Below, piece after piece: positions 16,875-64,000 of a stretch of DNA of 64,000 bases. Position numbers and translations under genes: made by a program. The stretch is from an uncultured Candidatus Saccharibacteria bacterium (lineage in GTDB: Bacteria; Patescibacteriota; Minisyncoccia; Phycocordibacterales; Phycocordibacteraceae): assembly GCA_964402535.1 (NCBI GenBank), contig CAYOCH010000002.1, positions 6,661 through 70,660 of the forward strand. The letters run 5' to 3'. The notes beneath the pieces are model-generated. The model was not told the DNA's origin. It saw only the letters and a list, made by a program, of their open reading frames with translations, and did no database searches. Every line of letters begins with the position of its first letter. Within the stretch, counting starts at the first letter, position 1.

Positions 16875-16959
16875 CTACACCGGAATATGTCGCTCTCCTT
16901 GCGGAGAGCTAGAAGCATATTAACCGAAAATTGGGGCGCTGCAATGGTACAGTTAGGCC

Positions 16960-49200: not shown

Positions 49201-52200
49201 ACACCGCGACAAACGGCGTCCCAGACGCGACCGTGATGAGCCTCTTGGGCAACGGCAACGTCGGCATCGGTTCGACCACGCCTGCCGCGACGCTCGCGGT
49301 GCAGGGCAACGGCCTCTTCTCGGGCAACATCACAGCCGCGAACATCACTGCGACTGGGACGCTCTCGACAACCGGCGCGATCTCGGCACCGTACTTCGTC
49401 GCGACGAACGCGCTCGCAACGAGCACGTTTGCAGGCGGCATCACGGGGCCGGGCAGCTTTGCGGTGCAGCAGACGACTGGCTATGTCGGCATCGGGACGA
49501 CGTCGCCGACGAGTGCACTCTATGTCGCGGGCAATGGCCTCACATCAAGCGTTATCACGGCTGACGGAGGCGCGAACTCTATATTCGGCCTCACCGTGCG
49601 GGGCTATCAGAACTGGGGCTCGGGTGTCGCCTACACCAACCAGACTGCAAACCGTACCTACGTCACGTATCAGGACACGACAGGTAATTTCAATATCTAC
49701 GACAGCACGGTGGGGAATCGGGTCACGGTGACTTCTACCGGCAGCGTCGGCATCGGCACCACGACTCCGTTCTATAAGCTTGAGGTGAACGGCACGGTCG
49801 AGGTCGCGAACGGGAGCGGTCTTTATGCGCTCTCGTCGAGCGGCACGCACTACCGGCTCGTGGACCTCGACGCGAGCAACGTCGTGAACATGGGCCCCAA
49901 CGGCTCGATCCAGATCGCGAACGGCGCGCCCTCGAGCGCGATCTTCGTGCAGAACACTGGCTCGGTCGGGATAGGCACGAATAGCCCTCAAGTGGCGCTG
50001 CATGTAGGGCCGACGGCAGCCGGCGCGAATGAGGTCGCAAGATTCGAACATGCGAACGCTGCGGGTTCATCCGGCATCACGATCTATCAGAATGGGACAC
50101 TAAAGGGCTCTCTCGGTACTGGCGACTTCGTGGCGACTGGGGGAGCCAACACAGACTTCGGCATCCAGTCTGCTGGCAACATGCTGTTCGCTACTGGCGG
50201 TACTGTCCAAAAAATGGTGCTGACATCAGGCGGCAATGTCGGCATCGGGTCGACCTCGCCCACGAGCCTCTTGAGCGTCTATGGCGCGGCGGGGGCGGCC
50301 ACCGTCACGATCGGCTCGCCCTCGAACTCTGCGCTCTTGACGCTCGATCGCGGCTCGAACACGCAGAACGCGACCTTTAACCTCAACACCGCGGGCGTGA
50401 ATTACGGCTACTTCGGCCTCGACACGAGCGCCAACTCGGTGACGCTCGCCTCGTCGAACAACAACCAGCTCACGGTCTCAGCGCACAACGCAAACCTCCT
50501 CCTGCGCGGCGGCACGAGCAACGGCATCATCATGCAGACCAACGGCAGCGCCGAGGCGATGCGCGTCACAAGCGGCGGCAACGTCGGCATCGGGTCGTCG
50601 ACGCCAAGCGCTGTCCTCGCGGTGTCGAACACGGCCGCGACCGCCGCCAACACGCCGCTCTTCACGATCGCTTCGACGACGGGCGGCACCTCCACGTCAA
50701 GCTTGATGACCGTTCTCGCGAACGGCAACGTCGGGATAGGTACGAGCAATCCGACCTCGCCGCTGTATGTATCGGGTGCGCCTGCGTTGCAGGCGGTCAT
50801 CGGCACGACGGCGAACACGCAGAACTGGATCTCTATCATCAAGTCGAGCAGTCAGACTGCGAGCTTCGGCATCCGCGCCAATAACTACGGCTTCCTCCAG
50901 GCGAACACCGGGATGCAGATCGAGAACTCGTCGTCGCAACCCTATATCGTGTTTGACGGGGTGAACGAAGGGATCGGCACCACGTCGCCATCTGCGACGC
51001 TCGCAGTGCAGGGCAATGGCCTCTTCTCGGGCAACATCACGGCTGCGAACATCACCGCGACGGGGACGCTCTCGACCACAGGAGCGATCTCGGCGCCCTA
51101 CTTCGTCGCGACGTCGCCGACCGCGACCTCAACCTTCGCGGGCGGCGCGACGTTCGCGACGAGCGGCGGCAACGTCGGTATCGGGACAGCGAATCCAGGC
51201 TACGCACTCGACGTCGCCGGTCTTGCGGGCATCAATGGGCGAGTGAAGCTTGGCGCCGGCAACGATCAGGTGGACATTGCGAACGGTGGCCTCGTGCTAC
51301 ATGACAGCGGCACAACTGCATATGTCGAGGCGCAGAATTCTAACAAGCCGCTCGTTCTCGGTACCAGTAACGCGGATATTCAATTCACTACAGGATTCGG
51401 CGTCACAGAGCTGATGAGGATCAAAGCGAACGGGAATGTGGGGATCGGCACGTCGACGCCCGCGGCTACGCTCGCGGTCGCGATGGCGAGCACAACACCG
51501 GCCTTCTATATCGGCGCGGCAGGGAGCTCGTCGCCCGCCTTCTATGTCGGCAGCGCGAACGGGAGCGGGCTCGTGGGTATCGGCACCTCGGCACCCGACC
51601 ATCCGCTCCAGATCACCGGCAACCCGCTACTCACGAGCGCGGTCGTGCGTGTGGGCGCCGTCGCGCAGAACGTCTCTGCATTGCGCGTGAAGGGCTACTT
51701 CAACGGCTTGAACGGCAATGAGGATGCCGGCGGCGTGAACGTCTACAACTACAACTCGGCCACGGTGCAGGCGACGCTCGGCGGCGACAGCGGCCTCTTC
51801 GCCTCGCCGCGCGGCACCAACCTCGTCGCGGCGATCGTCCGCGGCCTCACCGGCCAGACAGCCAATCTGCAAGAGTGGCAGGATGTGAACGGCAATCCGC
51901 TCTCTGTGATTACGAGCAGCGGCAACCTCGGCGTGGGCACCTCCTCGCCCGCGCAGGCGCTCTCGGTCGCGGGGACGGGCTACTTTGCGACGAATGTCGG
52001 CATCGGCGTGGCGAACCCGGGCGTATATAGCCTTATGGTGCAGGCGCCGACGATCGGCGGCCAAGTCTTCGGCGTCACTACGAATTATGGCAACAGCGGC
52101 AAGTTCGAAGTCAGCTTCAACAGCGGCAACGACCCGTTCGCTCACTTGACTACTAAGCAGGGTGGACAGATCGCCTACTACGACATGTACGACTCGGTCG

Positions 52201-54920
52201 GCAAGGCGATGCAGCTTGGTCAGACATTCGGCAACGGGATCAACCTCTCGGCCTCGACGAGCATCCAGATCGGCATCGACTCGAACAATCTCGGCACCGG
52301 CATGTTCGAGATCGCAAGAGGGAACACCTGGAACGGTCGCGCGGGCGTCGACGGCACCTCGCTCTTCAAGATCCTCAACAACGGCAACGTCGGCATCAGC
52401 AACACGAATCCCTCAACCCTCCTCGACGTGAACGGCACGACCACGCTGCGCAACCAGGTGTCGGTGAATGGGGCGAGCTTCTACGACAACACCGGCAAGA
52501 TCGGGCTCGGGGTCAAGATGACGAGCGACCTCAAGACTGCGCTCTATGTCACTGACAACTTTGCGGCGATGAGCGCGATCAATGGCGCATACATCTCATC
52601 GGTCATATACGGCGCCAATACGCAGCAAGGGAAGAACGCGTACTATGGAGCCATCAATGACCCGACGCTCTCGGTGAATATCCAAAACGGTTCCGGGTTC
52701 GTGAGCTATCTCAATAACACCAACAACACCGGCACCAACATCAATCACGGCGGTCTCTTCTATCAGAATCAGACTATGAATGTGGCCAACACCGGAACCG
52801 ATTATGGCTACACCTCGTACAACTACATGCAGAGCAGCGGCAACCCGACCTCGCTTGCGAATTATGTCGGCTTCTACTCTCGCGGGCAATTCGCGGTCGC
52901 GCCGGCGACGACGACCAACCAGTACGACTTCTATGCCGACAACTTCGTGGGGACAGGTAACGGCGCGGTCGTGAACCGCTACGGCGTCTATATCGGCTTC
53001 AACAGCACCGGCATCACGAACCCCTACGGCATCTATCAAGCGAGCCCGACTGTCCAGAACTACTTCGGCGGCAACGTGGGGATCGGCACCACGACGCCCC
53101 TCGCGAAGCTCGCAGTTCTCGGCACGGCAGAGCAGCTCCGTCTCAACTACGACGCGACGAACTACGCGAGCTTCACGGTGAGCAGCGCCGGCACGCTCAC
53201 TATTGCCCCCACGTCGAACGTAATGAATATCTCGGCGACGACACTGAATACGAATACGATCAACGTCGCCACCGGCAACGTCATCAATTTCAACGGGGTA
53301 GGCTACCTCCGCAGCCTGGGCGGCGTGTTTAACATCAATGACACCAACACGAACAACATCCTTCTCGCCAATGGTGGCGGCAACGTCGGCATCGGCACGT
53401 CGACACCTCAAAACAAGCTGACGATCGTCGGCGGGATCGGCACGTTCGTTAACACCAACTCCTCCTACCGAACCGACTGGGATGCCGGCTATATGATCAA
53501 CGACAAGCTTGCGATATCGAAGTACGGCGCAATTGGCCAGCTCTCGATCGACGCACAGGGTCAGTTCGGTTCGGTAATGGTCGGAAATATCGGCAACTAT
53601 GTGAGCAATTTGCTTGTGAGCGGCAACGTGGGGATCGGGACCACGACGCCTGGGAAGAAGTTGGTTATAGATAGCGGCTCGAATGGCAATAGCTTTGCGG
53701 CAAGCTTCAGCAATGGTGGAGCGGGCAGACCATATTGGCTGTATAATTTCCAGCAGCAGAATGTGCAGTGGACTTCTGGATTCGACATTGGAGGGAATAC
53801 AAACGACTTCTCCATCAGCAATACGTACTCTGGAACCCGAGATGTTTTCCACATCGAAAACACGGCGCCTGCGAATAGTTTTAGAATCCAAGCAAATACT
53901 GGCAATATCGGTATCGGTACGACGAGCCCTTCGACCCTCTTACACCTCTACTCGGCGAGTGCGCCATCGATAACGATTGAGTCGTCTGCTGCTGGCGGCG
54001 GCGCGACCGATAGGCGTCTCACCATCAATCAGAACAATGGAGGTACGGCGACACTCACCGCGATGGAGGATGAGAACAGCTCAACTCAGGCGGCGTTCAT
54101 CATCAACGCGACTAACAATCCGAGCAACGCCGCGCTCGCGATTCGGCCCATATTCGATCTGCAGAACGGCGGCAACAGCAAGCTCTTCGTCACAGCCGCA
54201 GGCAATGTCGGCATCGGCAGTACGTCGCCGAATACGAAACTTGTTGTCTCTGACAACAGCGGCCAGACGCTCATCGGCAGCATGGCCGCTTCGTACGGAT
54301 CCATCGGTTTCCAGCCGACCCTCACCACGTCCAATTTCGCGCTCGCCGGCAACACATCTGAAACGATACTTAATACGCTCGCGGGCACGTCGCTCAAGTT
54401 CCGCGTAGCGAACGCAGACAAGATGGTTATGGACCAAAACGGCAATGTCGGCATCGGCACCACGACACCTAGCAATAAGCTGACCGTCGCAGGCGGAGCA
54501 GACTTCGGTACGGCATACAGCCCGACTGGACAGACGATACGTCTAGCGCCGAGCGGAACGTTTTCAGAAGCGGATGTCATTTCTCAAGCGGTAGGATTGT
54601 CGATCTTCGCTAATCCGCAGGCCACAGCGCAGCCGTCATGGATCGACCCGCTTATGAGTCTCCCGAACGGGGCAGGACTGATGTCGACGACGGGAGTCGA
54701 TCTGATTTTGTCCGCGTCATCTCATGCTGGCGGCGGCGTCACGATCGCCGGATATCATAACGGCGCTGCACATGACATCAAGTTCTTCAACGACGGCAAC
54801 GAACAGATGCGCCTCACGACCGCTGGTAATCTCGGCATCGGGACCTCGACGCCGGGCGCGACGATGAACGTCTACTCGGGCGCCGGGACGCCGTGGAATA
54901 CCTACCCATCAGGCACCTGA
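43263..54920 (+). CDS. giant membrane-anchored repeat protein (3885 aa): N-terminal excisionase-type HTH + TM anchor + tail-fibre-like 'GNVGIGTTSP' repeat region
   Basis: N-terminal …LISTRYAGKISGYTSAYLRRLARSGEIEGVQVGRVWMIRQASLIRFL (HTH_17-like). TM helix SLVVTVVVALVAGTIAAQGL. Then ~3700 aa of Gly/Thr/Ser/Asn-rich modules with recurrent GNVGIGTTSP(W/S)A…L(S/A)V and APYFVAT…ATSTFAGG motifs. Ends at TGA, in frame with the next ORF. Confidence 0.8.
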   Translation: MKSKRETKGLISTRYAGKISGYTSAYLRRLARSGEIEGVQVGRVWMIRQASLIRFLDEQAKRKEELSKERARVHAEEYLSHQAPVKRVVAKIAKPIPVKNVDVEGLVSSSRSLVVTVVVALVAGTIAAQGLTPTLTRIAAQPAAALNAGEQIAVATYETIHGLFTSTTSALADLFAPAPTIVVPAPQIRVNKPPLAVASSSPTQTKPKQVAIAPILPAPYKEPAPVSYPTYVTTINGVSQSYVDAAVSAMRSGILATVSGMLAPVAQQTVVNQTTIQQVNMIQRLGGLIVDNGQFNGGTFDKGTMTNGIAVNAENATFTNLSAGNVNLGASNLATTTVSGDLTLSGVLSANTKAVAPYFVATASNATSTFAGGLAVGTQRLVVDSTTGRVGIGTTSPAQTLEVSSAGDWSGINITTTAAGNHQAISFNHPEGYPFQIFTSYTGGRPDTQFYVGSSGTVFMSSNKLAVNGGAIPSASEAALSVVPVGTEPGLNVKNNVNGSSSLLVTNLGKVGLASTTPWAQLSVNPNGITGPAFAIGSSTATNFVVTNGGQVGIGTTSPAYTFDVTGSARMDNLAVSQSGGFRAVTGSWAGSPSGDNLSWLAFGWADNTKYHRIRTCGFSNDNLCFDLINPSTHYLSITGQLNSVYGATIGYAAGTAGPTNGLAVSGSTGIGTTSPWAQLSVNPNGITGPAFAIGSSTATNFVVTNGGNVGIGTTSPQSTFVVNGTSQFTNNAVFNAQISVSQITSPNNLLIAAGGPLVQIAGHLVPQVTGTYDLGSASAGWRNVYVTGNVGIGTTSPSATLAVQGNGLFSGNLTASGNTYIGATSANTLTVNALVNSDITPSTNAVNSLGSPSFYWKNVYAANVIANNISAASTTIAGTASATFTINSGNATADTLDSSLVFFRGTVVPNAVLGWDSTNKRFTMNQPLFIQNASNNGGGVISLAVQGLAGQTADVLRIASSTGTSYLNVTAGGNVGIGTANPGSLFTVSGGSSGEQQVALFTSTGSANTKIAIENAAVGGHRWELRSTSTGTFDIVDRTAPAQRFVIDTAGNVGIGTTSPWAQLSVNPNGVTGPAFAIGSSTATNFVVTNGGQVGIGTTNPQQALHISTTNTYQGIFLNGNAAPSIGFAGWSGLTPAWKVGISGSAGSNLAISTGAANADLFNFTTAGNLGIGTTSPWAQLSVNPNGVTGPAFAIGSSTATNFVVTNGGQVGIGTSNPTLGTGSTTLEVYGNGGGFTQYGSLSLANTTNSGSSYSGSVDYYGATTLYGQIRTHVITGGPSGMSQIELSALNGGALNQVFTVGGTGSVTVGTANGVSSGYLGVYNSAGYGQTNTGIILGNMQTGAGSNIGVNFVDYAQNNIAQILGVYPGGTKAGSLAFSTGNGTSLNEAMRITSAGNIGIGTSTPAEKLDVAGRLSIEDISGNPPSAARSSFVFESNTDPLNTSVSALYVYPRTDTSKRFYFGTTTHQFYAVDFSNVLSITGVTSIQGAPNTQAIDFSSAAYDTTYGTATFDFKPTVDNTRPVVLRNSRVTDSATSVGFVLKTVNTLSNASAKLLTLDNNTTNLLTVMANGNVGIGTTSPFADLSIGGASNGTNPLFAVSTSTASATSTAFIIDKNGNVGIGTANPGQALTVNGEISLLGASGSSRGLLGAPTWDNSYVSLQNGSLSESAANSAINQNSLGDTIVNAATGRALHLRVGNTEQMSFNGTIAAFQNVNVGIGTTSPADNLDVYAPNNAGLAKIGLIRGDGAGYLTQWTYGPAGNGFLEIGENEAFNSSGSARVQFNTGAPSWFQQFNTNVDSYQIARIPAGGSTANVMLYIQSNGNVGIGTTSPSQALSVQGNGLFSGNITAANITATGTVTAANFSGPGVDPQGYGNYLSINPATQDLKFSRGGYWLNFNLTNNTPVITSQNNLLALPGITATSSVFTGYSAQQDVSRSTILSLTRQNTGARFQQAANFIMGGYDSAQTAHTQLDIALTNTATNGVPDATVMSLLGNGNVGIGSTTPAATLAVQGNGLFSGNITAANITATGTLSTTGAISAPYFVATNALATSTFAGGITGPGSFAVQQTTGYVGIGTTSPTSALYVAGNGLTSSVITADGGANSIFGLTVRGYQNWGSGVAYTNQTANRTYVTYQDTTGNFNIYDSTVGNRVTVTSTGSVGIGTTTPFYKLEVNGTVEVANGSGLYALSSSGTHYRLVDLDASNVVNMGPNGSIQIANGAPSSAIFVQNTGSVGIGTNSPQVALHVGPTAAGANEVARFEHANAAGSSGITIYQNGTLKGSLGTGDFVATGGANTDFGIQSAGNMLFATGGTVQKMVLTSGGNVGIGSTSPTSLLSVYGAAGAATVTIGSPSNSALLTLDRGSNTQNATFNLNTAGVNYGYFGLDTSANSVTLASSNNNQLTVSAHNANLLLRGGTSNGIIMQTNGSAEAMRVTSGGNVGIGSSTPSAVLAVSNTAATAANTPLFTIASTTGGTSTSSLMTVLANGNVGIGTSNPTSPLYVSGAPALQAVIGTTANTQNWISIIKSSSQTASFGIRANNYGFLQANTGMQIENSSSQPYIVFDGVNEGIGTTSPSATLAVQGNGLFSGNITAANITATGTLSTTGAISAPYFVATSPTATSTFAGGATFATSGGNVGIGTANPGYALDVAGLAGINGRVKLGAGNDQVDIANGGLVLHDSGTTAYVEAQNSNKPLVLGTSNADIQFTTGFGVTELMRIKANGNVGIGTSTPAATLAVAMASTTPAFYIGAAGSSSPAFYVGSANGSGLVGIGTSAPDHPLQITGNPLLTSAVVRVGAVAQNVSALRVKGYFNGLNGNEDAGGVNVYNYNSATVQATLGGDSGLFASPRGTNLVAAIVRGLTGQTANLQEWQDVNGNPLSVITSSGNLGVGTSSPAQALSVAGTGYFATNVGIGVANPGVYSLMVQAPTIGGQVFGVTTNYGNSGKFEVSFNSGNDPFAHLTTKQGGQIAYYDMYDSVGKAMQLGQTFGNGINLSASTSIQIGIDSNNLGTGMFEIARGNTWNGRAGVDGTSLFKILNNGNVGISNTNPSTLLDVNGTTTLRNQVSVNGASFYDNTGKIGLGVKMTSDLKTALYVTDNFAAMSAINGAYISSVIYGANTQQGKNAYYGAINDPTLSVNIQNGSGFVSYLNNTNNTGTNINHGGLFYQNQTMNVANTGTDYGYTSYNYMQSSGNPTSLANYVGFYSRGQFAVAPATTTNQYDFYADNFVGTGNGAVVNRYGVYIGFNSTGITNPYGIYQASPTVQNYFGGNVGIGTTTPLAKLAVLGTAEQLRLNYDATNYASFTVSSAGTLTIAPTSNVMNISATTLNTNTINVATGNVINFNGVGYLRSLGGVFNINDTNTNNILLANGGGNVGIGTSTPQNKLTIVGGIGTFVNTNSSYRTDWDAGYMINDKLAISKYGAIGQLSIDAQGQFGSVMVGNIGNYVSNLLVSGNVGIGTTTPGKKLVIDSGSNGNSFAASFSNGGAGRPYWLYNFQQQNVQWTSGFDIGGNTNDFSISNTYSGTRDVFHIENTAPANSFRIQANTGNIGIGTTSPSTLLHLYSASAPSITIESSAAGGGATDRRLTINQNNGGTATLTAMEDENSSTQAAFIINATNNPSNAALAIRPIFDLQNGGNSKLFVTAAGNVGIGSTSPNTKLVVSDNSGQTLIGSMAASYGSIGFQPTLTTSNFALAGNTSETILNTLAGTSLKFRVANADKMVMDQNGNVGIGTTTPSNKLTVAGGADFGTAYSPTGQTIRLAPSGTFSEADVISQAVGLSIFANPQATAQPSWIDPLMSLPNGAGLMSTTGVDLILSASSHAGGGVTIAGYHNGAAHDIKFFNDGNEQMRLTTAGNLGIGTSTPGATMNVYSGAGTPWNTYPSGT
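44817..46920 (+). repeat. intragenic near-identical ~125-nt DNA repeats (family A: WAQLSVNPNG(I/V)TGPAFAIGSSTATNFVVTNGG(Q/N)VGIGT)
   Basis: Copies at ~44817, 45291, 46446 and 46797 (>90% nt identity between the last two), plus a fifth in the second ORF at ~56484. Confidence 0.7.
45652..51150 (+). repeat. intragenic ~75-150-nt repeats (family B: ATLAVQGNGLFSGNITAANITATGTLSTTGAISAPYFVAT…ATSTFAGG)
   Basis: Copies at ~45652, 48760, 49283 and 50993; the 49283 and 50993 copies are >90% identical over ~150 nt. Confidence 0.7.
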
Positions 54921-54968
54921 GCTGCGATCGTCAACCAGTCGCAGAACATTAGCGGCGGCAACGGCCTC

Positions 54969-57900
54969 GTGGTGGTCAACAAGTATCTCTCGGCCAACTC
55001 GACCACCTTCGAGGTTGGGACGATCAACGACAGCAACGGCGTCTACGCCTCATCGCTCAAGATCACGGGCGACAACGCGGTCCGCGTGCCGCTCACGCTC
55101 CAGCTCGGCAACTCGGGCGGCAACGTGACCAGTCTGCAGCTCGGCGCCAACACCTCGGTCGCGAGCGGCGCCGTGATCGCGAATATCTATAACGCCAGCA
55201 ATAATCCGGGCATCACGGTCGGTACGAGCCGCACCGACGGCACCGCCTTCACGGTCGCAAACGGGATCACTTATGACGCGAACAAGGTGCCGAACTCGGG
55301 CGGCACCGCGCTCCTCACCGTGCTCGGCGGCGGCAATGTTGGCGTGGGCACCACCTCGCCGTATGCGCTCCTCGCCCTCTCGAACTCAGTGTCGACGCCC
55401 GCTAACACGCCGTTCTTCACGATCTCGAGCACAACCGGCGGCACCTCTACCTCGACCCTCATGACCGTGCTCGCGAACGGGTACGTGGGCATCGGGACGG
55501 CGAGTCCGGGACGATTCCTGGATGTGGTGGCGAGTACCACTGCCGGGACAGAAATCGCGCGATTCACCAACACGCCTGTAAGCAATCGGTATATCTCTGT
55601 CCGCACGGTGGGCGCGTCTGATTTCGGCGGTGCGTACATCGGCGGGCCGATGTTGGACAGCAGTGATCCCCAGGTCATTTTCGGCAAGAATCTGTTACTG
55701 CCAAGTAACGGTGCGAATATAGCATTGGCTCAATCCAGCTTGACGAGTTCGTCTGCCGGGGGAACGGTGCTGACGAGCGGCGGATCGACGGCCCAAGCCG
55801 GGACAACTATCCAGCTGGGGAATAGCTCGACTTTCCAAGGGAATCTGTACGTTAAAGATGGGTCGGGGAACACGGTGATGACAGTCCAACCGACAGGTAA
55901 TGTCGGTATTGGTGCCACCGCACCAACCTCGCCCTTGACGGTCGTGACGCCCTCACTGTGGGGCAATGGGGCAGCAGGCGAGAATCTAGGCGTGACGGTC
56001 AACCCGTCGGCCAACGGCACGCTCTATGGGCTTTTTAACCTGACAAGTGTCACGGCCACGACCACGACCGGCAACGCGGCCGTCGTCGGCTCTCAGAACA
56101 CGGTGACGGCCACCAATAACAACGGCGGCAACACCACGCTCACCGCCGTCTCTGGGACGACGAACAACACCGGCGGTGGGAGCGCAAGCCAGATGACCGG
56201 CTTCTTTACGAATCCGGCGGTCTATAACACCGGTTCGTCGGTGAGCTCGCTCTATAACTTCTACGCAAACGACGTCTATCTCGGCAACGGCACCTCGCAG
56301 CCCTTCGGCTCGGTCAACAAGCTCTACGGCTATTATGTCGGTGCGCTCCAGAGCGCCTCGACCAACTACGGCCTCTTCTTCGCCAACAACCCGAACGGCG
56401 GCTCGATCGCCTCGGCCGCCTCGACCAACATCTCGATCCTGCCCGGCTCGGGCGGGAGCGTGGGGATCGGCACCACATCGCCGTGGGCACAACTTTCGGT
56501 CAACCCGAACGGGATCGCGGGCCCCGCCTTCGCGATCGGCTCCTCGACCGCGACGAACTTCGTCGTGACGAACGGCGGGAATGTGGGGATCAACACGGTT
56601 AACGCGACGAACGCTCTCACGTTCGGCGCGACAGGCGGCTATGAGATCTCGACGGAGCCGAACAATGCAAACGACCTCAACATCACGACGAACGCGACGA
56701 ACGGCGGCGGGATCTCTCTCGGTGCAAGAAACTCGAACAAATCGATCTATGTGAGTATCGGGGGTGGAGTCGGTATCGGCACGACCTCGCCGCGCGCCGC
56801 TCTTGAGATCGGCGGCAGCGCGAACCCGTCCGTCTACCTCAACTCGCAATATTCAACGCCGAGCACGATGCAGTGGTATATCCCGAACATCGCGACGATG
56901 TCGCTCGTCGCAAATGCGGTCGGGAACGAAAACGCAAACGCGCAGTGGGTCATGGACATGGGCTCTAGTGACGGCCTTACAGATTCTTTTGGCGTACTCC
57001 GCGCTAGTACCGTGGGTTCCACCCGCGTGCCGTTCTTCGTGGTGAACAACAACGGCAACACCGGCATCGGCACCACGACGCCGGGCGGCGACCTCTCGAT
57101 CGCAGGCAGCGCCGGCGGCACCAACCCGCTCTTCCTCATCTCTTCGAGTACCTCGGGCTACGCGACCTCGACCGCGTTCATGGTCGACAGTTACGGCAGC
57201 CTTGGCATCGGTCGGGTGCCGAACGCGCAGCTCTCAGTGGCTGGCGACGCCTATATCGGTACTGGCGCAGGCTCCTTCACCTTCACCTCCAACTACAACT
57301 TCAACGCACAAGGCACCAACTTCGGCCCGAGCCTCAACATCTCTGATGGCGATGCGACAAACCGCTGGGCCTCACTGCGCCTATCGACGGCGGGCGGTCA
57401 ATGGGAGATGGCCGACATGGGCGGGAACCTCGGATTCCTCCGCGGCTCGAACAATCGCGTAGTGATCGGTCGCTCCGATAGCAGCAATGCGAACCTGAAC
57501 GTCTACAACGACGCCAACACCATCCTCTTCACGGTTCAGCCGACGGGCTACGTCGGTATCGGTCCGAGCAACCCAGTTAATCAGCTCGACATCGGCATCG
57601 GGCCGTTCGCAACCGCCAAGACGGCCAACTTCAGCACCCTCAACATCGCGAACACGGCGACCTCCTCGTCGTCGTTCACGAAGACCGGCATGCAGATCTC
57701 ATCGACCGGCGCGTGGACAGGCCCGAACTACGGCCTCTATGTCTCGGCGGTCTCGGGCGGCACCAACAACTACGACGCGATCTTCAACGGCGGCGGCAAC
57801 GTCGGTATCGGCACCACGACGCCTTCGGATCTCTTGTCACTCGCTTCAACTAATCCGAGAATCGACCTGTTTGACACGAATGTTTCGGGTCCGGCGCGTG

Positions 57901-60281
57901 TCGCACTCACGGCGTATGGCGGAACCAATGCAAACGCTGCTCTGCAGACGCGTACGAATGTCCCGCTGATTTTCGGTGCAAATTCTAGTGCCAGCCAGCT
58001 CGTGCTCGCAACAAATGGCAACGTCGGCATCGGCACCACGACGCCCGGGAAGCCTCTCACTATCGCTGCTACGGGTTCCGGACCGTCTATCGGCACGGGA
58101 ATGCTTTCGCTCGTAGGTCCGCACAATACGACTGCTCGCCCTGAAATATTCTTCCAGAATTCCGCTGCCGGGACGACATATACCGGCGGTCTGCGCTGGT
58201 ATGACGGCAATGGCAACGAAGGGTGGGGTATTGAAAGCAATAGGGCCATAGGAACCGGTTATCTCGAATTCAACATTGCTGGCTCCAATAAGATGGTTCT
58301 CGACCCGTCTGGAAATGTCGGCATCGGCTCAACGAGCCCCACCTATACGCTTTCAGTTGACAAAGGCAGCGTCGGCAACCAGGCGGCATTCGGGCATACG
58401 GCCAAGGGATATCTCTATGACGACGGCACCAACTTCTGGCTTTCAAGTGCGGCGAGCGTGGCCGGCCCCGGCATAGGCTTTGCGCAATCTCTCGGTACCG
58501 CCTATCTGACCTATGCGACCGGGCAGGTAGGATTTACGATGGACAACTCTGGCAATGTCGGTATCGGCCGGAGCCCGGGCGTGCGGCTGGACGTGCAGGG
58601 TGTGAACAGCTCGTCGATCGTGCGGATTACGGCGGGCGGCGCGGGCGTCATACTCGGAGCCGACGTGGCGGGGAATGCGCTCTATGGGAACTCCGCCTAT
58701 GGCACCGCGCTGACCCTAAGCGCCGCGGGTGCCTTGCGCTTGAATGCCTATGGGGCGGGTACGCTCACGACCGATGCGAGTGGTAATGTCACGGCATCTT
58801 CCGATGCTCGCCTGAAGAATGTGGATGGAGGCTACACGCGCGGCCTCGAGGCGATACGCGGATTGTCGCCCCAGCTCTACCACTGGAACGCGGCGAGCGG
58901 ACTCGATCAGACGACGCAGTATGCCGGCTTTATCGCGCAGAACGTACGGCAGTACATTCCCGAGGCAGTCGGACAGACGCCGAGCGGTTATCTGACGCTC
59001 GCCGACCGTCCTATTGAAGCGGCGCTCGTGAATGCCGTGCAGCAGCTCGATAACCGAACGAGCTGGATCCAGGTAGCGAGCTCGAGCGCAACGACCACAC
59101 CGGTGCTCACCTTCGACCCGACGACAGGCCGCGTCGGCATCGGGTCGACCACGCCGACCCACACCCTCACGGTCGCAGGCGACGTCGGCGCGATCGCCTT
59201 CGTCAACACCTCGACACGAGACGCCAAGACTGACATCTCCTACGTGAACGCCTCGACGACCGAGGATATGCTGAACGCGCTCGTGAACCTCAAGGTCGCG
59301 ACCTATCACTACAAGGTCGAGCCCGAGACCGATCCGCTCCGCCTCGGCTTCATCGCAGAGGATGCAGCTAAGATCGCGCCCGAGATCCTCTCGCCGGACG
59401 GCAAGGGCGTCGACCTCTACAAGCTCGCGACCTTCACGCTCGCCGGCGTCCAGTCGCTCGCTGCGAAGGTCGATGTGCAAGGGACCAAGATCACCTCGCT
59501 TGAACAGCGCGTTGCGGCGCTCGAGAGCGGGGCAGTGTCGGTGGGCAGCTCGGCGCCGCAGCTCTCGACGAGCTCGCTCGCGAGCGCGATCTCGAGCATC
59601 ACGGAGGTCCTCAATATCGGCAAGCTCGTGTCGCAGACGTTCTATGCGGCGCAGGGCTTCTTCGACCGCTTGACGGCGGCGAACGCGACGATCGGTTCCT
59701 CGTCGACGCCGTCTGGCGTAACCTTCTTCGACACGGTTACCAAGCAGCCGTTCTGCTTCACGATCGCGAACGGAGTACCGACCACGACGCCGGGCGTCTG
59801 CGCCACCTCGAATGAGACGACCAATCCGTTCGCGACGTCGACACCGGCTGCTGCTGCAGCGACGAGCTCGCCGATCTCGGTGCTCGGCGCCAACCCGCTC
59901 CTGCTCGCGGTCGGGGCGACCTTCACCGACCCTGGCGTCACGGTCGCGAGCGGGGCAGCGGTGACCACATTCGTGAACGGCATACAGCAAGTGGTCTCAT
60001 CGACGACGATCAGCACGCTTAGTCCGACGACCTATATCATCACCTACCAGTCAACTGACGCCACGGGCGCACTCATATCGGCGACTCGCTCGGTGATAGT
60101 GGGGAACCCCGACGGCACGGTCTCGACCGGCGTTTCGACGACGACCGCTACCAGCACACCGATCACGATCCAGACGGTTGCGACGAGTACCACAGCCTCG
60201 TCTAGCCCGATCACGATCACTCCGGTCGACACCACCACAACCGCCTCAACGACATCCGCCACCTCAACTTCTGCACTTTAA
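54969..60281 (+). CDS. C-terminal part (1770 aa) of the giant repeat protein: repeats + two tandem S74 intramolecular-chaperone domains + DUF5011 Ig-like domain + Thr/Ser tail
   Basis: Same frame as 43263..54920 with no stop in the 48-nt gap; only a GTG start. Shares repeat families with the upstream ORF. S74-like domains: SDARLKNVDGGYTRGLEAIRGLSPQLYHW…GFIAQNVRQYIPEAV…GYLTLADRPIEAALVNAVQQLD (~58800-59090) and DAKTDISYVNAS…LKVATYHYK…LGFIAEDAAKIAPEIL…GVDLYKLATFTLAGVQSLAAKV…LEQRVAALE (~59220-59560). DUF5011-like …PGVTVASGAAVTTFVNGIQQV…TYIITYQSTDATGALISATRSVIV (~59880-60110). Confidence 0.75.
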   Translation: MVVNKYLSANSTTFEVGTINDSNGVYASSLKITGDNAVRVPLTLQLGNSGGNVTSLQLGANTSVASGAVIANIYNASNNPGITVGTSRTDGTAFTVANGITYDANKVPNSGGTALLTVLGGGNVGVGTTSPYALLALSNSVSTPANTPFFTISSTTGGTSTSTLMTVLANGYVGIGTASPGRFLDVVASTTAGTEIARFTNTPVSNRYISVRTVGASDFGGAYIGGPMLDSSDPQVIFGKNLLLPSNGANIALAQSSLTSSSAGGTVLTSGGSTAQAGTTIQLGNSSTFQGNLYVKDGSGNTVMTVQPTGNVGIGATAPTSPLTVVTPSLWGNGAAGENLGVTVNPSANGTLYGLFNLTSVTATTTTGNAAVVGSQNTVTATNNNGGNTTLTAVSGTTNNTGGGSASQMTGFFTNPAVYNTGSSVSSLYNFYANDVYLGNGTSQPFGSVNKLYGYYVGALQSASTNYGLFFANNPNGGSIASAASTNISILPGSGGSVGIGTTSPWAQLSVNPNGIAGPAFAIGSSTATNFVVTNGGNVGINTVNATNALTFGATGGYEISTEPNNANDLNITTNATNGGGISLGARNSNKSIYVSIGGGVGIGTTSPRAALEIGGSANPSVYLNSQYSTPSTMQWYIPNIATMSLVANAVGNENANAQWVMDMGSSDGLTDSFGVLRASTVGSTRVPFFVVNNNGNTGIGTTTPGGDLSIAGSAGGTNPLFLISSSTSGYATSTAFMVDSYGSLGIGRVPNAQLSVAGDAYIGTGAGSFTFTSNYNFNAQGTNFGPSLNISDGDATNRWASLRLSTAGGQWEMADMGGNLGFLRGSNNRVVIGRSDSSNANLNVYNDANTILFTVQPTGYVGIGPSNPVNQLDIGIGPFATAKTANFSTLNIANTATSSSSFTKTGMQISSTGAWTGPNYGLYVSAVSGGTNNYDAIFNGGGNVGIGTTTPSDLLSLASTNPRIDLFDTNVSGPARVALTAYGGTNANAALQTRTNVPLIFGANSSASQLVLATNGNVGIGTTTPGKPLTIAATGSGPSIGTGMLSLVGPHNTTARPEIFFQNSAAGTTYTGGLRWYDGNGNEGWGIESNRAIGTGYLEFNIAGSNKMVLDPSGNVGIGSTSPTYTLSVDKGSVGNQAAFGHTAKGYLYDDGTNFWLSSAASVAGPGIGFAQSLGTAYLTYATGQVGFTMDNSGNVGIGRSPGVRLDVQGVNSSSIVRITAGGAGVILGADVAGNALYGNSAYGTALTLSAAGALRLNAYGAGTLTTDASGNVTASSDARLKNVDGGYTRGLEAIRGLSPQLYHWNAASGLDQTTQYAGFIAQNVRQYIPEAVGQTPSGYLTLADRPIEAALVNAVQQLDNRTSWIQVASSSATTTPVLTFDPTTGRVGIGSTTPTHTLTVAGDVGAIAFVNTSTRDAKTDISYVNASTTEDMLNALVNLKVATYHYKVEPETDPLRLGFIAEDAAKIAPEILSPDGKGVDLYKLATFTLAGVQSLAAKVDVQGTKITSLEQRVAALESGAVSVGSSAPQLSTSSLASAISSITEVLNIGKLVSQTFYAAQGFFDRLTAANATIGSSSTPSGVTFFDTVTKQPFCFTIANGVPTTTPGVCATSNETTNPFATSTPAAAAATSSPISVLGANPLLLAVGATFTDPGVTVASGAAVTTFVNGIQQVVSSTTISTLSPTTYIITYQSTDATGALISATRSVIVGNPDGTVSTGVSTTTATSTPITIQTVATSTTASSSPITITPVDTTTTASTTSATSTSAL

Positions 60282-60295
60282 CGATACTCTGCTCT

Positions 60296-61039
60296 GAATG
60301 AAGGACATCGTATGTCCTTCATTCAAGCTTTTCGTAAGGCTTGAAGCTCGAATCTGAATCGCGGAGATATTCGTGAATGGACACGGAATAGCTTCCGAGA
60401 GCGTCTTTGAATAGCGTCGGTGATAAGAGGGAAGGGAAGTTGTGTTCACCAGTATAATCCGGATAGCTGCTCCAACGATACGTACGCAAATATTTCAAAG
60501 CATCATCCACATTTCGTATTCCAGCCTTCTCGCGTAGACGCCACTGTTCAGCCCCTGGTAGATAATCAAGCGGATTCAAGTGAATGTAGTGAAGGATGTA
60601 CAAGAAGTGCGAGTCGCGGTCGATCAGAATCTTCTTGGTGCGGCCCTGGAAGAGAGTGCCGCTGCGTGAATATCGCTCGTTGAAATATTTTGCGTAGCCG
60701 ACGTTGAGCTTTCGTAAGAAGAGGCTCATGGCACCGTCGACGCGTTCGCTCAACAGCAGGTGGTAGTGATTTTTCATCAGTACCCAGCCATGGATGTCGA
60801 CTAGCAGCTCCCGCGGTTCCCTAAATGAAGGACATACGAAGTCCCTCATGGCAGTCGGGTCAAATAGGCGCCACACGTTGTCTGCGGGTGCTGTATCGTT
60901 AAACTCATAGAGATCGTGCACGAAGCGAGCGTAATCCTGGGTATCAAGGAACAAATCTCTCCCCTCAACGCCGCGATTTAGGACGTGCCAAAGTTCCATA
61001 TACATCATGATACATGAAGGACATACGATGTCTTTCATG
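60296..61039 (-). mobile_element. second IS200/RAYT-like element: Y1 transposase flanked by ~27-nt hairpins
   Basis: Perfect hairpin GAATGAAGGACAT-CGT-ATGTCCTTCATTC at 60296-60324 and CATGAAGGACAT-ACG-ATGTCTTTCATG at 61013-61039; a degenerate third copy lies inside the gene at 60823-60849. Confidence 0.6.
60319..60999 (-). CDS. IS200-like Y1 (HuH) transposase / RAYT, copy 2
   Basis: HuH motif MKNHYHLLL, …FQGRTKKILIDRDSHFLYILHYIHLNPL…; divergent homolog of 40149..40850. The track start 61038 lies inside the flanking hairpin, so the internal ATG (MELWHVL…) is preferred. Confidence 0.65.
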   Translation of the reverse strand: MELWHVLNRGVEGRDLFLDTQDYARFVHDLYEFNDTAPADNVWRLFDPTAMRDFVCPSFREPRELLVDIHGWVLMKNHYHLLLSERVDGAMSLFLRKLNVGYAKYFNERYSRSGTLFQGRTKKILIDRDSHFLYILHYIHLNPLDYLPGAEQWRLREKAGIRNVDDALKYLRTYRWSSYPDYTGEHNFPSLLSPTLFKDALGSYSVSIHEYLRDSDSSFKPYEKLE

Positions 61040-61115
61040 CAGATGACCTCCCAGTGGACAACGAAGACGAACTATGGCACAGTGATTCCTGTCATAGTCC
61101 TTTGGGAGAGAAGTC

Positions 61116-61754
61116 ATGGATGCATGCAACGACGGGCATGTGCTGCCCGCACGGCCGCTCGAGGTCGCACTCGGGTTCAAGGAGTACGTGCTTGAGCTCA
61201 TCGATAACCCGGATATCCCGACGCGCGACGTCGTCTCGGTGCTCACGAAGCAGCCAGGCGTCGTCGCCTACTTCTTGCGGGCGGCGAACGAGGCGTGCGA
61301 GGCGAGCCGGAGGATGAGGAACAGCAAGCCGCGTACGGTCGCGGCTGTCGTGAACACGCTCGGGCTCGTCTACATCGCGCGGCATATGGACGCCTTTACC
61401 GGTGCCGGCGAGCCAGAGGGCGGTCGGCTCGTGCGCGGCGCTATCGACGCCTGCGGCGTCGCCAAGGTCCTCGCTGGGCTCGCTGAAGAGCGGCTCGGCA
61501 AGATCTGGGCGCCTGAATACTTCCTCGTCGGGCTCATGGACCGCAGCTTCATGCGGGACAACGAGCTTTTGGGGATCTGCAATCGCGACCTGATCGAATG
61601 CTACACCGGGCTGCGGCCCGGCGGCCCTGTCATCGCAGAGGCCGAGGCGCTCATCGAGGCGTTCCGCAAGGGCCTGTCGACGCGCGTGCCGCTCTACGCG
61701 GTCTGGAAGCGTGCCGTGAGCGATACGGAGGAGCTCTTCAGGAGCATCAGCTGA
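61116..61754 (+). CDS. HDOD-domain-like protein
   Basis: GGGAGAG RBS; …YVLELIDNPDIPTRDVVSVLTKQPGVVAYFLRAANEA… resembles the HDOD signalling domain. Confidence 0.5.
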   Translation: MDACNDGHVLPARPLEVALGFKEYVLELIDNPDIPTRDVVSVLTKQPGVVAYFLRAANEACEASRRMRNSKPRTVAAVVNTLGLVYIARHMDAFTGAGEPEGGRLVRGAIDACGVAKVLAGLAEERLGKIWAPEYFLVGLMDRSFMRDNELLGICNRDLIECYTGLRPGGPVIAEAEALIEAFRKGLSTRVPLYAVWKRAVSDTEELFRSIS

Positions 61755-61774
61755 ATGAGAGCGCAGACTTCGCA

Positions 61775-61798
61775 ACGGGTCCTACGGGACCCGTTTTT
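61775..61798. terminator. bidirectional intrinsic terminator
   Basis: acgggtcc-tac-gggacccgt followed by TTTTT, between convergent HDOD(+) and recR(-). Confidence 0.6.
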
Positions 61799-61801
61799 CA
61801 T

Positions 61802-62434
61802 TTATGCCTCGTGACGGTTCACGAGCGCGGCGCGCAGCGTCTCGGCGTCGGCGTACTCGAGCTCGCTGCCGGTAGAGAGACCGCGGCCGAGGAGCGAGAT
61901 GGTGAGCGAGTCACGATAGGGTGCGAGCAGCTCGCGAACGCGGTCGCTCGTGTGCTCGCCCTCGCTCGTCGCTCCGAGCGCGAGCACGACCTCTTTTCCG
62001 CCAGAGGCGGACCCGCCTTTGGCGGGCAGGCTCGTCTTTAAATGTTTATCAACTCGTCGCACGAGCTCCTTCTCTCGGATCGCACCCTTGCCGGTCAGGG
62101 TGAGTACGCCGCCGAGAACGAAGTAGCGGCCCTTGTAGGTGCCGGCGCGCTCGATGGCGGCCAGGTCCTGATCCTTCTCGACTACCATGAGCTGCGCATC
62201 GTCGCGGTGCGTGTCGGTGCAGTAGTTGCAGACCGTTGCCATCGTGCCGTTGAAGTAGCGCATGCAGTCGGGGCACTGATGCACGTCCTTGCCGAGCGAA
62301 GCGATCAGCTCTGCGAGCCGTGCGCGGTCCGCGGCGTTTGAGGTGAGGAGGTGAAAGACGAAGCGCTTGGCCTGTCGCGGGCCGATGCCGGGCAGTTTAG
62401 CGAGCGCCTGTGCGAGTGCGTCGATGTGATCCAT
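61802..62434 (-). CDS. recR: recombination protein RecR
   Basis: HhH (LPGIGPRQAKR), C4 zinc finger (CPDC…CNYC), Toprim domain. Confidence 0.85.
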   Translation of the reverse strand: MDHIDALAQALAKLPGIGPRQAKRFVFHLLTSNAADRARLAELIASLGKDVHQCPDCMRYFNGTMATVCNYCTDTHRDDAQLMVVEKDQDLAAIERAGTYKGRYFVLGGVLTLTGKGAIREKELVRRVDKHLKTSLPAKGGSASGGKEVVLALGATSEGEHTSDRVRELLAPYRDSLTISLLGRGLSTGSELEYADAETLRAALVNRHEA

Positions 62435-63795
62435 TAAAACTCTGCAGCGAGGTCGCCGTAGCCGGAAGTGTCGACGGGCTGGAAGGTCGCGCGCTTCTCG
62501 TCGAAGAAGAGCTCGGCGGCGCCGGTCGGCCCGTTGCGGTGCTTCTCAACGAGGATCTCGGCGATATTAGGGCGATCGCTCTCGGGATTGCGCTTGTCAT
62601 CGCGGTGGATGAACATCACCACGTCGGCGTCCTGCTCGATCGAGCCGGAGTCGCGCAGGTCTGAGAGGCGTGGCTTGCCTCCGCGCTGCTCGACCGCGCG
62701 TGAGAGCTGCGAGAGGGCGATCACCGGCACCTGGAGCTCGCGCGCGAGGCCCTTCAGCGACCGCGAGATCTCGGTGACCTGCTGCACAAGCGAGTCCGAG
62801 GCCTTGGTGTTGGTCGGCGCCATGAGCTGCAGGTAGTCGACGACGATGAGGCCGATACCGCGCTCGCGCTTCAAGCGCCTCGCGACCGCGCGCATCGCGA
62901 GGATGTTGTTGCCTGGCTTGTCGTCGATGTAGATCGGCGCCTTCGAGAGCGACTCAAGCGCGTCGCGGATGCGGCTGAAGTCCTCCTCTTCGCGCACCTG
63001 GCCGGTTCTGAGCTTCCACGAGTTGACGAACGATTCGGCCGCGAGCATGCGGTCGATGAGCTGCTCTGAGCTCATCTCGAGCGAGAAGATGCCGACCGGC
63101 ACGTTGTGGCGGATCGCCGCGTTGCGGGCGATGTCGAGGGCGAGGGAGGTCTTACCCATCGATGGTCGCGCCGCGAGGATCACGAGGTCGGATGGATGGA
63201 AGCCGGAGAGAAGGTTGTCGAGGGTAGGGAAGCCGGAGGGCACGCCGCGGATGCCGCCCTCCTTGTGCGAGAGCGCCTCGAGACGCTCCCATGCCTCGTG
63301 CACCTTGTCGCCGATCGCGGTGAACTTGTGCGCAGCCGACTGGTCGCCGATCGCGTAGATCGACTTCTCAGCCTCGTCGAGGACCTCCATCGTCTCGCGC
63401 GACTCGTCGTAAGCAGACTCGGTGATGCCGTAAGCCGCGTCGATCAGCGAGCGCATCACGTGCTTGCGGGAGACGAGATCAGCGTAGTGGCTGTAGTTGC
63501 CGGGAGCCGGTGCAGAGCCCGCAAGCTCGGCCAAGTAGCTCCGGCCGCCGGCACGCTCGAGGAGCCCCTGATCCTGGAGGCGCTGTGAGAGCGAGAGCTG
63601 GTCGATCGGCTCGCCGCGCTGCGCGAGCTCGCCCATCGCGCCGAAGATGATCCGATGCTTCTCGGCGTAGAAGGAGTCGGGGCGGATGGTGTCAGAGACG
63701 TCGTGGATCGCGTCTGGCTTCAAGAGAAGGGCGCCGAGGAGCGCGCGTTCAGACTCGAGCGATTGGGGCGGGACGCGGTCCGCGGTGGTAGCCAT
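62434..63795 (-). CDS. dnaB: replicative DNA helicase DnaB
   Basis: Walker A (ARPSMGKTSLAL), …GIPSGFPTLDNLLSG…, RecA-like C-terminal domain. Confidence 0.9.
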   Translation of the reverse strand: MATTADRVPPQSLESERALLGALLLKPDAIHDVSDTIRPDSFYAEKHRIIFGAMGELAQRGEPIDQLSLSQRLQDQGLLERAGGRSYLAELAGSAPAPGNYSHYADLVSRKHVMRSLIDAAYGITESAYDESRETMEVLDEAEKSIYAIGDQSAAHKFTAIGDKVHEAWERLEALSHKEGGIRGVPSGFPTLDNLLSGFHPSDLVILAARPSMGKTSLALDIARNAAIRHNVPVGIFSLEMSSEQLIDRMLAAESFVNSWKLRTGQVREEEDFSRIRDALESLSKAPIYIDDKPGNNILAMRAVARRLKRERGIGLIVVDYLQLMAPTNTKASDSLVQQVTEISRSLKGLARELQVPVIALSQLSRAVEQRGGKPRLSDLRDSGSIEQDADVVMFIHRDDKRNPESDRPNIAEILVEKHRNGPTGAAELFFDEKRATFQPVDTSGYGDLAAEF

Positions 63796-63811
63796 TGCGC
63801 CGATTATACCT

Positions 63812-64000
63812 CTAGGGGCGCTTGGTCAACACTGGCCCAGAAGGGCCGTCATCCACACGATATCCACGGTTCTCGATCTCTCCTCGGAGCTGGTCAGCCG
63901 CGGCAAAATCCTTGGCCTTGCGGGCTGCCTCGCGCTTGTCGAGCAAGTCGCGTACCTCGGCAGGGATATCTGCGCCAGAGAGGGTAGTGGGAGCTCGTGC
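63812..64000 (-). CDS. cysS: cysteinyl-tRNA synthetase, C-terminal fragment (gene continues beyond window)
   Basis: …DLLDKREAARKAKDFAAADQLRGEIENRGYRVDDGPSGPVLTKRP*, the conserved CysRS C-terminal helix. Confidence 0.55.
   Translation of the reverse strand, partial: ARAPTTLSGADIPAEVRDLLDKREAARKAKDFAAADQLRGEIENRGYRVDDGPSGPVLTKRP

Follow-up and report, generated by a model that had tools for sequence, protein, structure and literature searches.

A tandem S74 cassette at the end of a giant repeat gene

The stretch of DNA analysed here (the window) comprises 64,000 nt of contig CAYOCH010000002.1 in genome assembly GCA_964402535.1, which stems from an uncultured bacterium of the phylum Patescibacteria. 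Its forward strand carries a giant gene of the trimeric-fibre type (43263-60281, 5672 codons), made up of two open reading frames (ORFs) in the same frame, ORF1 (43263-54920, 3885 aa) and ORF2 (54969-60281, 1770 aa). At the distal end of ORF2, two Peptidase_S74 domains follow one another and are succeeded by an immunoglobulin-like (Ig-like) domain and a Thr/Ser-rich tail; this cassette is the subject of our analysis. Coordinates are positions in the window, unless a locus of another genome is named, and residue numbers such as S1278 refer to ORF2 (54969-60281, +).

Searched as a whole against Pfam, ORF2 matches Peptidase_S74 (PF13884) with an E-value of 9e-20 in two stretches, and each copy scanned alone exceeds the Pfam cut-off of 22 bits: copy 1 with 43.6 bits (E 3.6e-11, positions 1-57 of the 58-residue profile) and copy 2 with 37.3 bits (E 3.3e-9, positions 2-55 of 58). 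Scanned as its own piece, the segment of aa 1636-1711 matches Bact_surface_Ig-like (PF16403, formerly DUF5011) with 39.6 bits at a cut-off of 27. Copy 1, hereafter c1, covers aa 1278-1367 (58800-59069, +) and begins with S1278-D-A-R-L-K1283 (58800-58817) in the context TAS/SDARLK, the slash marking the predicted cut before S1278 (58800-58802); the partner K1283 is encoded at 58815-58817, and a custom c1 profile hidden Markov model (HMM) scores 118-120 bits. It is separated from copy 2 by a fibre-repeat 'stub', TFDPTTGRVGIGSTTPTHTLTVAGDVGAIAFVNT (59109-59210, +), which includes a copy of DNA repeat family D2 at 59108-59174. Copy 2, hereafter c2, begins 137 aa past the start of c1 with S1415-T-R-D-A-K1420 (59211-59228; context FVNT/STRDAK, predicted cut before S1415, partner K1420) and spans, together with a long C-terminal helix, aa 1415-1519 (59211-59525, +). 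Neither domain is terminal, with 403 aa following c1 and 266 aa following c2. A first-pass annotation of this DNA had described two such domains upstream of an Ig-like domain and a Thr/Ser tail, both S74 copies lying inside the chain; the translation of 58797-60110 is as it had quoted, and this architecture is borne out in full, including the Ser/Lys dyad for which it had proposed a per-copy HMM check (S1278/K1283 and S1415/K1420).

The dyad can be related to that of MyRF, a eukaryotic protein with an internal S74 domain (ICA), in which cleavage requires both S587 and K592, the chain is cut between P586 and S587, and the two residues correspond to S911 and K916 of the phage endosialidase endoNF (PMC8326128, PMC3742443). 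Aligned by phmmer to the structure of the MyRF ICA (7dc3), S1415 matches the S587(A) position and K1420 matches K592. The MyRF active site is further lined by Y615, Y617 and I637 (PMC8326128, PMC3742443), and where these residues align c2 retains Y-x-Y (ATYHYK) and G-F-I-A (GFIAED). The canonical start motif of the family, S-D-x-R-x-K, is present in c1 as SDARLK; c2 has STRDAK, with Thr for Asp at position +1 and Arg at +2 rather than +3, and it carries Glu for the Gln of the 'IAQ' motif. The STRxxK variant is itself conserved throughout the c2 subtype.

An AlphaFold2 model of aa 1225-1770, computed as a single chain from an alignment of 48 sequences, places c1 at a predicted local distance difference test score (pLDDT) of 85-96 and c2 at 82-92, including a 37-residue helix (model residues 259-295); the long C-terminal helices of both S74 domains are modelled with confidence. 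The small beta module further downstream scores about 80, the Ig-like domain 92-95, and the Thr/Ser tail is disordered. The best Foldseek match in the PDB for this single-chain model is the MyRF ICA (E 9e-4, TM-score 0.52-0.58), followed by Ig-like adhesin domains; the matches of the Ig-like part comprise the SraP, BT2262, Rib and PKD Ig-like domains. By profile, the Ig-like domain matches Big_3 (2kpn) and the Ig domains of chitinase-60, and the helix region of c2 has a weak match to designed trimeric coiled coils. In the PHROG collection, both S74 copies match the C-terminal ends of phage tail fibre families.

Behind c2 follow a helical linker (59526-59702, +; aa 1520-1578), for which AlphaFold2 predicts helices at model residues 311-346 with low confidence (pLDDT about 41-47), a small beta module with two Cys (GVTFFDTVTKQPFCFTIANGVPTTTPGVC; 59703-59810, +; aa ~1579-1614), modelled as strands, the PF16403 Ig-like domain (59874-60101, +), and a low-complexity tail which is Thr/Ser-rich in translation (60111-60278, +; aa 1715-1770). 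Among 150 post-c2 tails of relatives, the linker is kept in 67, the small beta module in 62 and the Ig-like domain in 94, and Thr/Ser-rich ends are common. The helical stretch that succeeds the c2 coiled coil (59526-59702; positions 277-319 of our A2 profile) also has a weak likeness, probably due to chance, to AhlC-type components of tripartite pore-forming toxins (E 0.02-0.06).

Two independent Logan assemblies, SRR5161805 and SRR5161795, are 100% identical to the window over positions 56550-64000, so that the tandem S74 domains are not an accident of assembly. The order S74, S74, Ig-like domain, Thr/Ser tail is confirmed as real.

Two reading frames, one gene

ORF2 is not a stand-alone protein. 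It continues ORF1 across a single in-frame TGA (codon 3886; 54918-54920, +), which lies in the middle of a repeat unit, between ...TYPSGT and AAIVNQSQ.... One family of 'GNVGIGTTxP' repeats spans both frames, with spacings in multiples of 3, and distant homologues of the junction peptide align across the TGA as one repeat unit; being distant matches of the repeat type only, they place the stop inside a repeat and do not give the residue expected there. Decisive is a syntenic orthologue from a related member of the Paceibacterota (L012, 11967-19958, on JBAZXD010000001.1), which is uninterrupted, encodes 2663 aa and lies convergent with RecR-DnaB. At the N-terminus its homology to ORF1 is clear (MKSNLYKKDLITTRYAGKLSGYTSSYLRRLARSGEVEGVQVGKVW...), and its C-terminus carries c1 (at aa 2237) and c2 (at aa 2376). 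Thus, the two frames of the window are one gene of 5672 codons that bears an in-frame stop. In a collection of 15 billion proteins, ORF1 and ORF2 are singletons and have been called as separate genes.

Could the stop be bypassed? Recoding was considered and rejected: TGA serves as an ordinary stop for at least nine other ORFs of the window, and no unusual RNA structure or stable hairpin was found after it (z 0.39). Independent translation of ORF2 was likewise discarded, as no Shine-Dalgarno-like sequence precedes any candidate start codon in its first 900 nt. The TGA could be a nonsense mutation, a minority or population variant, or an error; the Logan contigs begin at 56550, downstream of the site. 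The TGA lies 5.3 kb before the end of the gene, so that the cassette is made only if this stop is a variant, whether of sequencing or within the population, or if translation passes it.

Fibre shaft and N-terminus

Between the N-terminal region and c2, the gene encodes an array of capping-loop repeats, G-N-V-G-I-G-T-T-x-P-x-x-x-L, that would form a beta-helical fibre shaft (44423-59174, +). We count 47 copies, 35 in ORF1 and 12 in ORF2, with a median spacing of 98 aa; at the DNA level the repeats fall into families D1-D6. The repeat fits the capping-loop consensus V-G-G/N-pi-x-x-P-x-x-x-L, which was defined for the mosaic adhesive trimer (MAT) fibres of Bdellovibrio and for MyRF (PMC10769870), and the window protein has a weak phmmer match to the MAT protein Bd3182 (8ojn, E 0.045). 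Bd3182, with 922 aa, has been modelled as a trimeric fibre of ~550 Å (PMC10769870); by simple proportion, a shaft of ~5000 aa would reach roughly 0.3 µm.

The N-terminus of ORF1 bears a helix-turn-helix (HTH)-like domain of the HTH_17/excisionase type (43308-43439, +; aa 16-59 of ORF1), presumably cytoplasmic. With 22.7 bits it scores under the Pfam cut-off of 27, and its match to the PHROG excisionase family phrog_1840 has an E-value of 1.5e-5. Such a domain heads 34 of 66 giant relatives, sometimes in two copies. A DNA-binding-type fold joined to what would be a huge extracellular fibre is a puzzling combination. The domain is followed by a putative signal-anchor transmembrane (TM) helix, SLVVTVVVALVAGTIAAQGL (43590-43658, +; aa 110-132), the sole place among the 5672 aa where a 19-aa window exceeds a mean Kyte-Doolittle hydropathy of 1.9. 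The L012 orthologue, too, starts with the HTH-like domain and TM helix.

Two conserved S74 subtypes

To place the two copies among their relatives, the S74 domains of 108 homologues were typed with custom profile HMMs, which separate them into the c1 and c2 forms. The c1 form (...TTDASGNVTAS/SDxRLK...) is the classic one and is terminal in most proteins, with a median of 32 aa behind it; the c2 form (...AGDIGAIAFVNT/STRxAKTDI...) is never terminal and has a median of 278 aa behind it, the shortest tails belonging to fragmentary entries. In the window protein the two are 29% identical over 48 aa, so the duplication is ancient and the copies have gone on to evolve as separate modules. Thus, the 'duplicated S74 module' of the first-pass annotation holds in that there are two copies, and fails as a simple duplication: c1 and c2 are distinct conserved subfamilies.

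An HMMER search of 1.84 billion representative proteins with the c1+c2 query gave 10,606 matches at E≤1e-3, 92 of them at E≤1e-30. The top 150 of these matches were pooled with the first homologue set into 236 S74-bearing proteins, 86 of which have c1 directly followed by c2, at a median gap of 49 aa. Many of the c1-c2 proteins are giants of 2000-7920 aa (e.g. 7920, 7275, 7214, 6467 and 5796 aa). Every c1 (161/161) and every c2 domain (157/157) has Ser as its first and Lys as its sixth residue, while the residues in between vary. The tails behind c2 are mosaic: among 150 of them, 94 carry PF16403-like Ig domains, 70 a beta-sandwich, 62 the small Cys-containing beta module and 17 an 'ICVDDQC' motif. 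Some giants, such as P0132, P0136 and L020, have c2 as their sole S74 domain. In P0140 (5473 aa), four internal c1 domains (aa 1490, 2656, 3743 and 4931) precede a c2 (aa 5063), with Ser and Lys in all of them, so that this protein resembles a self-cutting 'polyfibre' precursor.

A single-protein scan of IMG/VR for the c2 module found none, and a scan with the A2 profile yielded one phage protein, whose S74 is an ordinary terminal one. No NCBIfam family matches the ORF or its N-terminus, and in the literature searched we found no paper that joins S74 with lineages of the candidate phyla radiation (CPR) or Patescibacteria. The architecture is widespread, real and built from known parts, and so far undescribed in the literature searched.

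Split inteins at the c1-c2 junction of relatives

About 20 homologues are ORFs of ~600 aa headed by a C-terminal intein part (...VYDIEVEGTHNFVGNDIFAHN/T), behind which come fibre repeats, c2 and Ig domains; P0004, P0006, P0008, P0009 and P0011 are among them. The corresponding upstream half is seen in locus L001 (1028-6682; JGI Ga0120162_1000094), where an ORF ends with c1 and the N-terminal part of an intein (CVVGDTRL...TANHPYL). The two halves lie ~2.9 kb apart, and genes of the Bro-N and PD-(D/E)XK nuclease types stand between them. A profile that contains the intein also matches DnaB inteins in the PDB. The break falls exactly between the c1 and c2 modules, just upstream of the stub.

'Fractured genes' with split inteins are a known arrangement (Dassa et al., 2009, PMC2677866). 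The L001-type relatives conform to it, in that the gene is broken and free-standing nuclease-type genes occupy the gap; the window gene differs, being continuous at the c1-c2 junction, without an intein there. If the split inteins of the relatives trans-splice, they would restore the same c1-c2 polypeptide and rejoin the two modules, which would suggest that the covalent linkage of c1 and c2 matters, at least during assembly.

Genomic context and lineage

The genes around the fibre gene are, in order, RmuC, an IS200-like Y1 transposase homologue, a DEAD-box helicase, the giant gene itself, a second Y1_Tnp homologue, RecR and DnaB. The gene is chromosomal, as had been supposed at first, stands in housekeeping surroundings and is not part of a prophage. 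The carrier, as also proposed there, is a giant of the trimeric-fibre type built from repeats, its 47 'VGIGTTxP' capping-loop motifs being of the kind seen in Bdellovibrio MAT and in MyRF. The GC content is ~0.61, and DnaB shares up to 91% identity with proteins of metagenome-assembled genomes of Candidatus Kaiserbacteria, Paceibacterota and Minisyncoccia. Every named homologue with the c2/Ig part belongs to Patescibacteria; a few weaker matches confined to c1 carry other names (Chromatiaceae, Aenigmatarchaeota). Of 80 DnaB-anchored loci in related genomes, only 3 have a related cassette adjoining RecR-DnaB.

The two Y1 transposase homologues (40149-40850, +, and 60319-61038, -) flank the block of DEAD-box helicase and giant fibre gene in opposite orientation. 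A composite transposon was considered and rejected, as the two are 36% identical and no inverted DNA repeats accompany them. A Y1_Tnp gene also lies directly downstream of the L001 fibre gene. Between the downstream Y1_Tnp gene and RecR, positions 61092-61775 hold an ORF of ~212-227 aa with no Pfam match on either strand, which is called as a 212-aa gene on the Logan contigs. Elsewhere in the window, a tRNA gene at 16583-16885 (-) is interrupted in its anticodon loop by a group I intron (Rfam RF00028, 64 bits, 16625-16862). ARAGORN misses this tRNA, and in-silico removal of the intron restores the call; its anticodon varies with the exact splice sites (Tyr, Leu and others in our trials). Group I introns in tRNA genes of Patescibacteria are the topic of an existing paper (PMC13011429).

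Discussion

What can be discerned from the parts of this gene about the working of the whole? The closest precedent for the carrier is provided by the MAT fibres of the S74 subgroup, such as Bd3182 (PDB 8OJN, 8ONB and 8ONC; PMC10769870), which serve Bdellovibrio bacteriovorus, a bacterium that attaches to other cells. Like MAT, the window gene is chromosomal and would encode a cell-anchored trimeric beta-helical fibre, a fibre that we deduce here from sequence. The two share the capping-loop motif and a mosaic of tips among paralogues, and the S74 domain of Bd3182, with its SDxxxK motif, has been found to cleave itself at the Ser (PMC10769870). However, a MAT protein ends either in one terminal S74 domain or in a non-S74 tip and never has both, whereas the window gene combines two S74 subtypes with a tip-like tail. 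MAT proteins are also far shorter (~900-1100 aa, against 5672 codons), and at their N-terminus a signal peptide leads into a beta-rich, conserved domain of ~130 aa, in place of the HTH-like domain and TM helix, a difference of N-termini that we draw from their descriptions. Finally, their host is Bdellovibrio, while the window gene belongs to the phylum Patescibacteria.

For the cassette itself, the best match in the PDB by both sequence and fold is the MyRF ICA (7DC3; PMC8326128, PMC3742443). There, too, the S74 domain is not terminal, follows capping-loop turns of a beta-helix and has more domains behind it; Ser and Lys are five residues apart; and a DNA-binding-type domain, a TM helix and S74 are combined in one protein. 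The order of the parts differs, though. In MyRF the DNA-binding domain precedes the ICA and the TM helix, and cleavage frees a DNA-binding trimer, whereas the window gene reads HTH, TM, fibre, S74, S74, tail, which would put its S74 domains across the membrane from the HTH. Moreover, MyRF is eukaryotic, with one S74 domain on a very short stalk, in contrast to the two of the window gene. The phage tailspike and tail-fibre domains (ICD; endoNF of K1F and T5 pb1) belong to the same family, PF13884, and share SDxRxK with c1, but they are single and at the extreme C-terminus, whereas the window has two copies, neither terminal, in a membrane-anchored giant of a cell. Trimeric coiled coils have been reported for the S74 proteins studied (PMC8326128, PMC3742443); in the window protein a C-terminal helix is predicted for S74 in the single-chain AlphaFold2 model, and a role of its S74 domains in triple beta-helix folding and self-release would follow these precedents.

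On these grounds we favour, with a probability of about 60%, a giant membrane-anchored trimeric surface fibre of a tiny, symbiotic and Kaiserbacteria-like member of the Patescibacteria, resembling the Bdellovibrio MAT and with a C-terminal maturation and tip cassette that cleaves itself in two steps. The HTH-like domain would remain in the cytoplasm and the single TM helix (aa 110-132) would anchor the chain in type II orientation, while the ~5000 aa of 'GNVGIGTTxP' repeats would be exported. At the distal end, the pair of S74 intramolecular chaperones would trimerise via their C-terminal helices, and after trimer formation each would cut itself by its Ser/Lys dyad, c1 before S1278 and c2 before S1415. 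A distal module of 493 aa would thus be freed, and with both cuts it would fall into a piece of 137 aa (c1 and stub) and a piece of 356 aa, the latter consisting of c2, the helices, the small beta module, the Ig-like domain and the Thr/Ser tail; the mature fibre would end ...GNVTAS. The Ig-like domain and Thr/Ser tail would most likely act as a surface- or glycan-binding assembly handle or as a detachable cap, or may be a released factor. In both Bd3182 and MyRF, the S74 domain trimerises, aids the folding of the upstream triple beta-helix and cuts at Ser, and the parts separate (PMC10769870, PMC8326128). It is from these studied proteins and from the invariance of the catalytic residues that we infer autocleavage and distal release for the window protein. 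The strongest argument that both sites would be active is the full invariance of the dyad in more than 150 domains of each subtype.

Several points weigh against this two-step maturation. The c2 motif departs from SDxRxK, with Thr at +1, Arg at +2 and Glu in 'IAQ', so that its cleavage could be slow or lacking altogether. The weakest point is what a variable Ig-like tail would be for on a part destined for removal: a discarded pro-piece would hardly be expected to bear so changeable a mosaic of Ig and beta domains, which better fits a functional tip. With regard to trimer geometry, our AlphaFold2 model is that of a monomer. Lastly, given the in-frame TGA and an ORF2 that has neither a start nor a ribosome-binding site of its own, the gene may be dead in this strain.

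The first two of these points can be accommodated if only c1 cuts, or neither domain does, and c2 is a trimerisation hub that permanently bears an Ig-like adhesive tip, as the non-S74 tips of MAT proteins are borne; in a variant, c1 would cut and the tip would remain docked non-covalently. Such a hub agrees with the fact that c2 is never terminal and carries a mosaic, variable tail as an adhesin tip would, with PF16403 Ig-like domains being typical of surface adhesins, and with the c2-only giants, which point to c2 and tail as a self-sufficient end module; it would also relieve the deviating c2 motif of any catalytic duty. However, Ser and Lys are invariant in c2 while the residues in between vary, which is hard to explain without catalysis, and in the S74 proteins studied the parts separate once cut. 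We regard the hub, with its variant, as the main rival to two-step maturation and as rather unlikely. That the gene is a recent pseudogene, truncated by the TGA at 54918 after 3885 aa so that the cassette is not made, is a concern of another kind, and our estimate for it is independent of those for two-step maturation and for the hub. The single in-frame TGA, a normal stop codon in this genome, speaks for it, as do the want of an RBS-like sequence or plausible start in ORF2 and of recoding-type RNA structure, and the record of two separate proteins by gene callers. Yet 1770 downstream codons are still open, with intact and high-scoring domains, which implies that any inactivation was very recent or that the TGA is a variant, of sequencing or in the population, one transition away from TGG. 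We take the risk seriously and consider a dead gene somewhat improbable.

Two further explanations question the nature of the locus as such. A tail fibre gene of a phage or prophage inside the chromosome would account for the S74 matches to tail-fibre PHROGs, the excisionase-like HTH at the N-terminus, and the Bro-N and nuclease genes within the homologous locus L001. But phage structural genes are absent from the neighbourhood of RmuC, DEAD helicase, RecR and DnaB, the same position at RecR-DnaB recurs in other Paceibacteria genomes, the product has a TM anchor and 5672 codons, and IMG/VR holds nothing like c2 beyond one ordinary terminal S74; a phage origin of this kind is therefore very improbable. 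Even less credence can be given to a mis-assembly of repeats as the source of the tandem arrangement. The gene is indeed highly repetitive, and contig ends or scaffold gaps are frequent among its relatives, but the Logan contigs are identical across the cassette, the order c1 to c2 recurs in 86 other proteins, and modules with so little identity as c1 and c2 are unlikely to be confused as DNA.

Already known are all the parts of the cassette, the internal position of an S74 domain (MyRF) and chromosomal S74 fibres (MAT), and the gene is broken by a stop in this genome. Beyond these, the locus belongs to a large family, so far without a name, of giant membrane-anchored fibres of up to ~7900 aa, which shares its parts with phage tail fibres and with the prey-recognition fibres of Bdellovibrio, and whose twist is the placing of two different S74 modules in series with a mosaic Ig-like tail. 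The invariant dyads predict three defined cleavage products. As a more speculative extension, which we hold to be doubtful, the S74 domains of Patescibacteria could be programmed break-points in giant surface polyproteins, cutting an exported chain into several trimeric pieces. Under this equally tentative extension, the c1-c2 pair and rows of as many as five S74 domains, as in P0140, would be instances of one principle, and the distal piece of the window gene would be an Ig-tipped trimer, detachable or secreted, with a part in making or regulating host-cell contact. If true, such break-points would give episymbionts a novel means of building, arming or shedding their attachment fibres. Should the two-step maturation of the cassette be confirmed, it would extend the role of S74 from a terminal chaperone that is shed after use to an internal device for multi-step processing, and would provide candidate host-attachment structures for Kaiserbacteria-like organisms among the ultra-small CPR bacteria and Patescibacteria.

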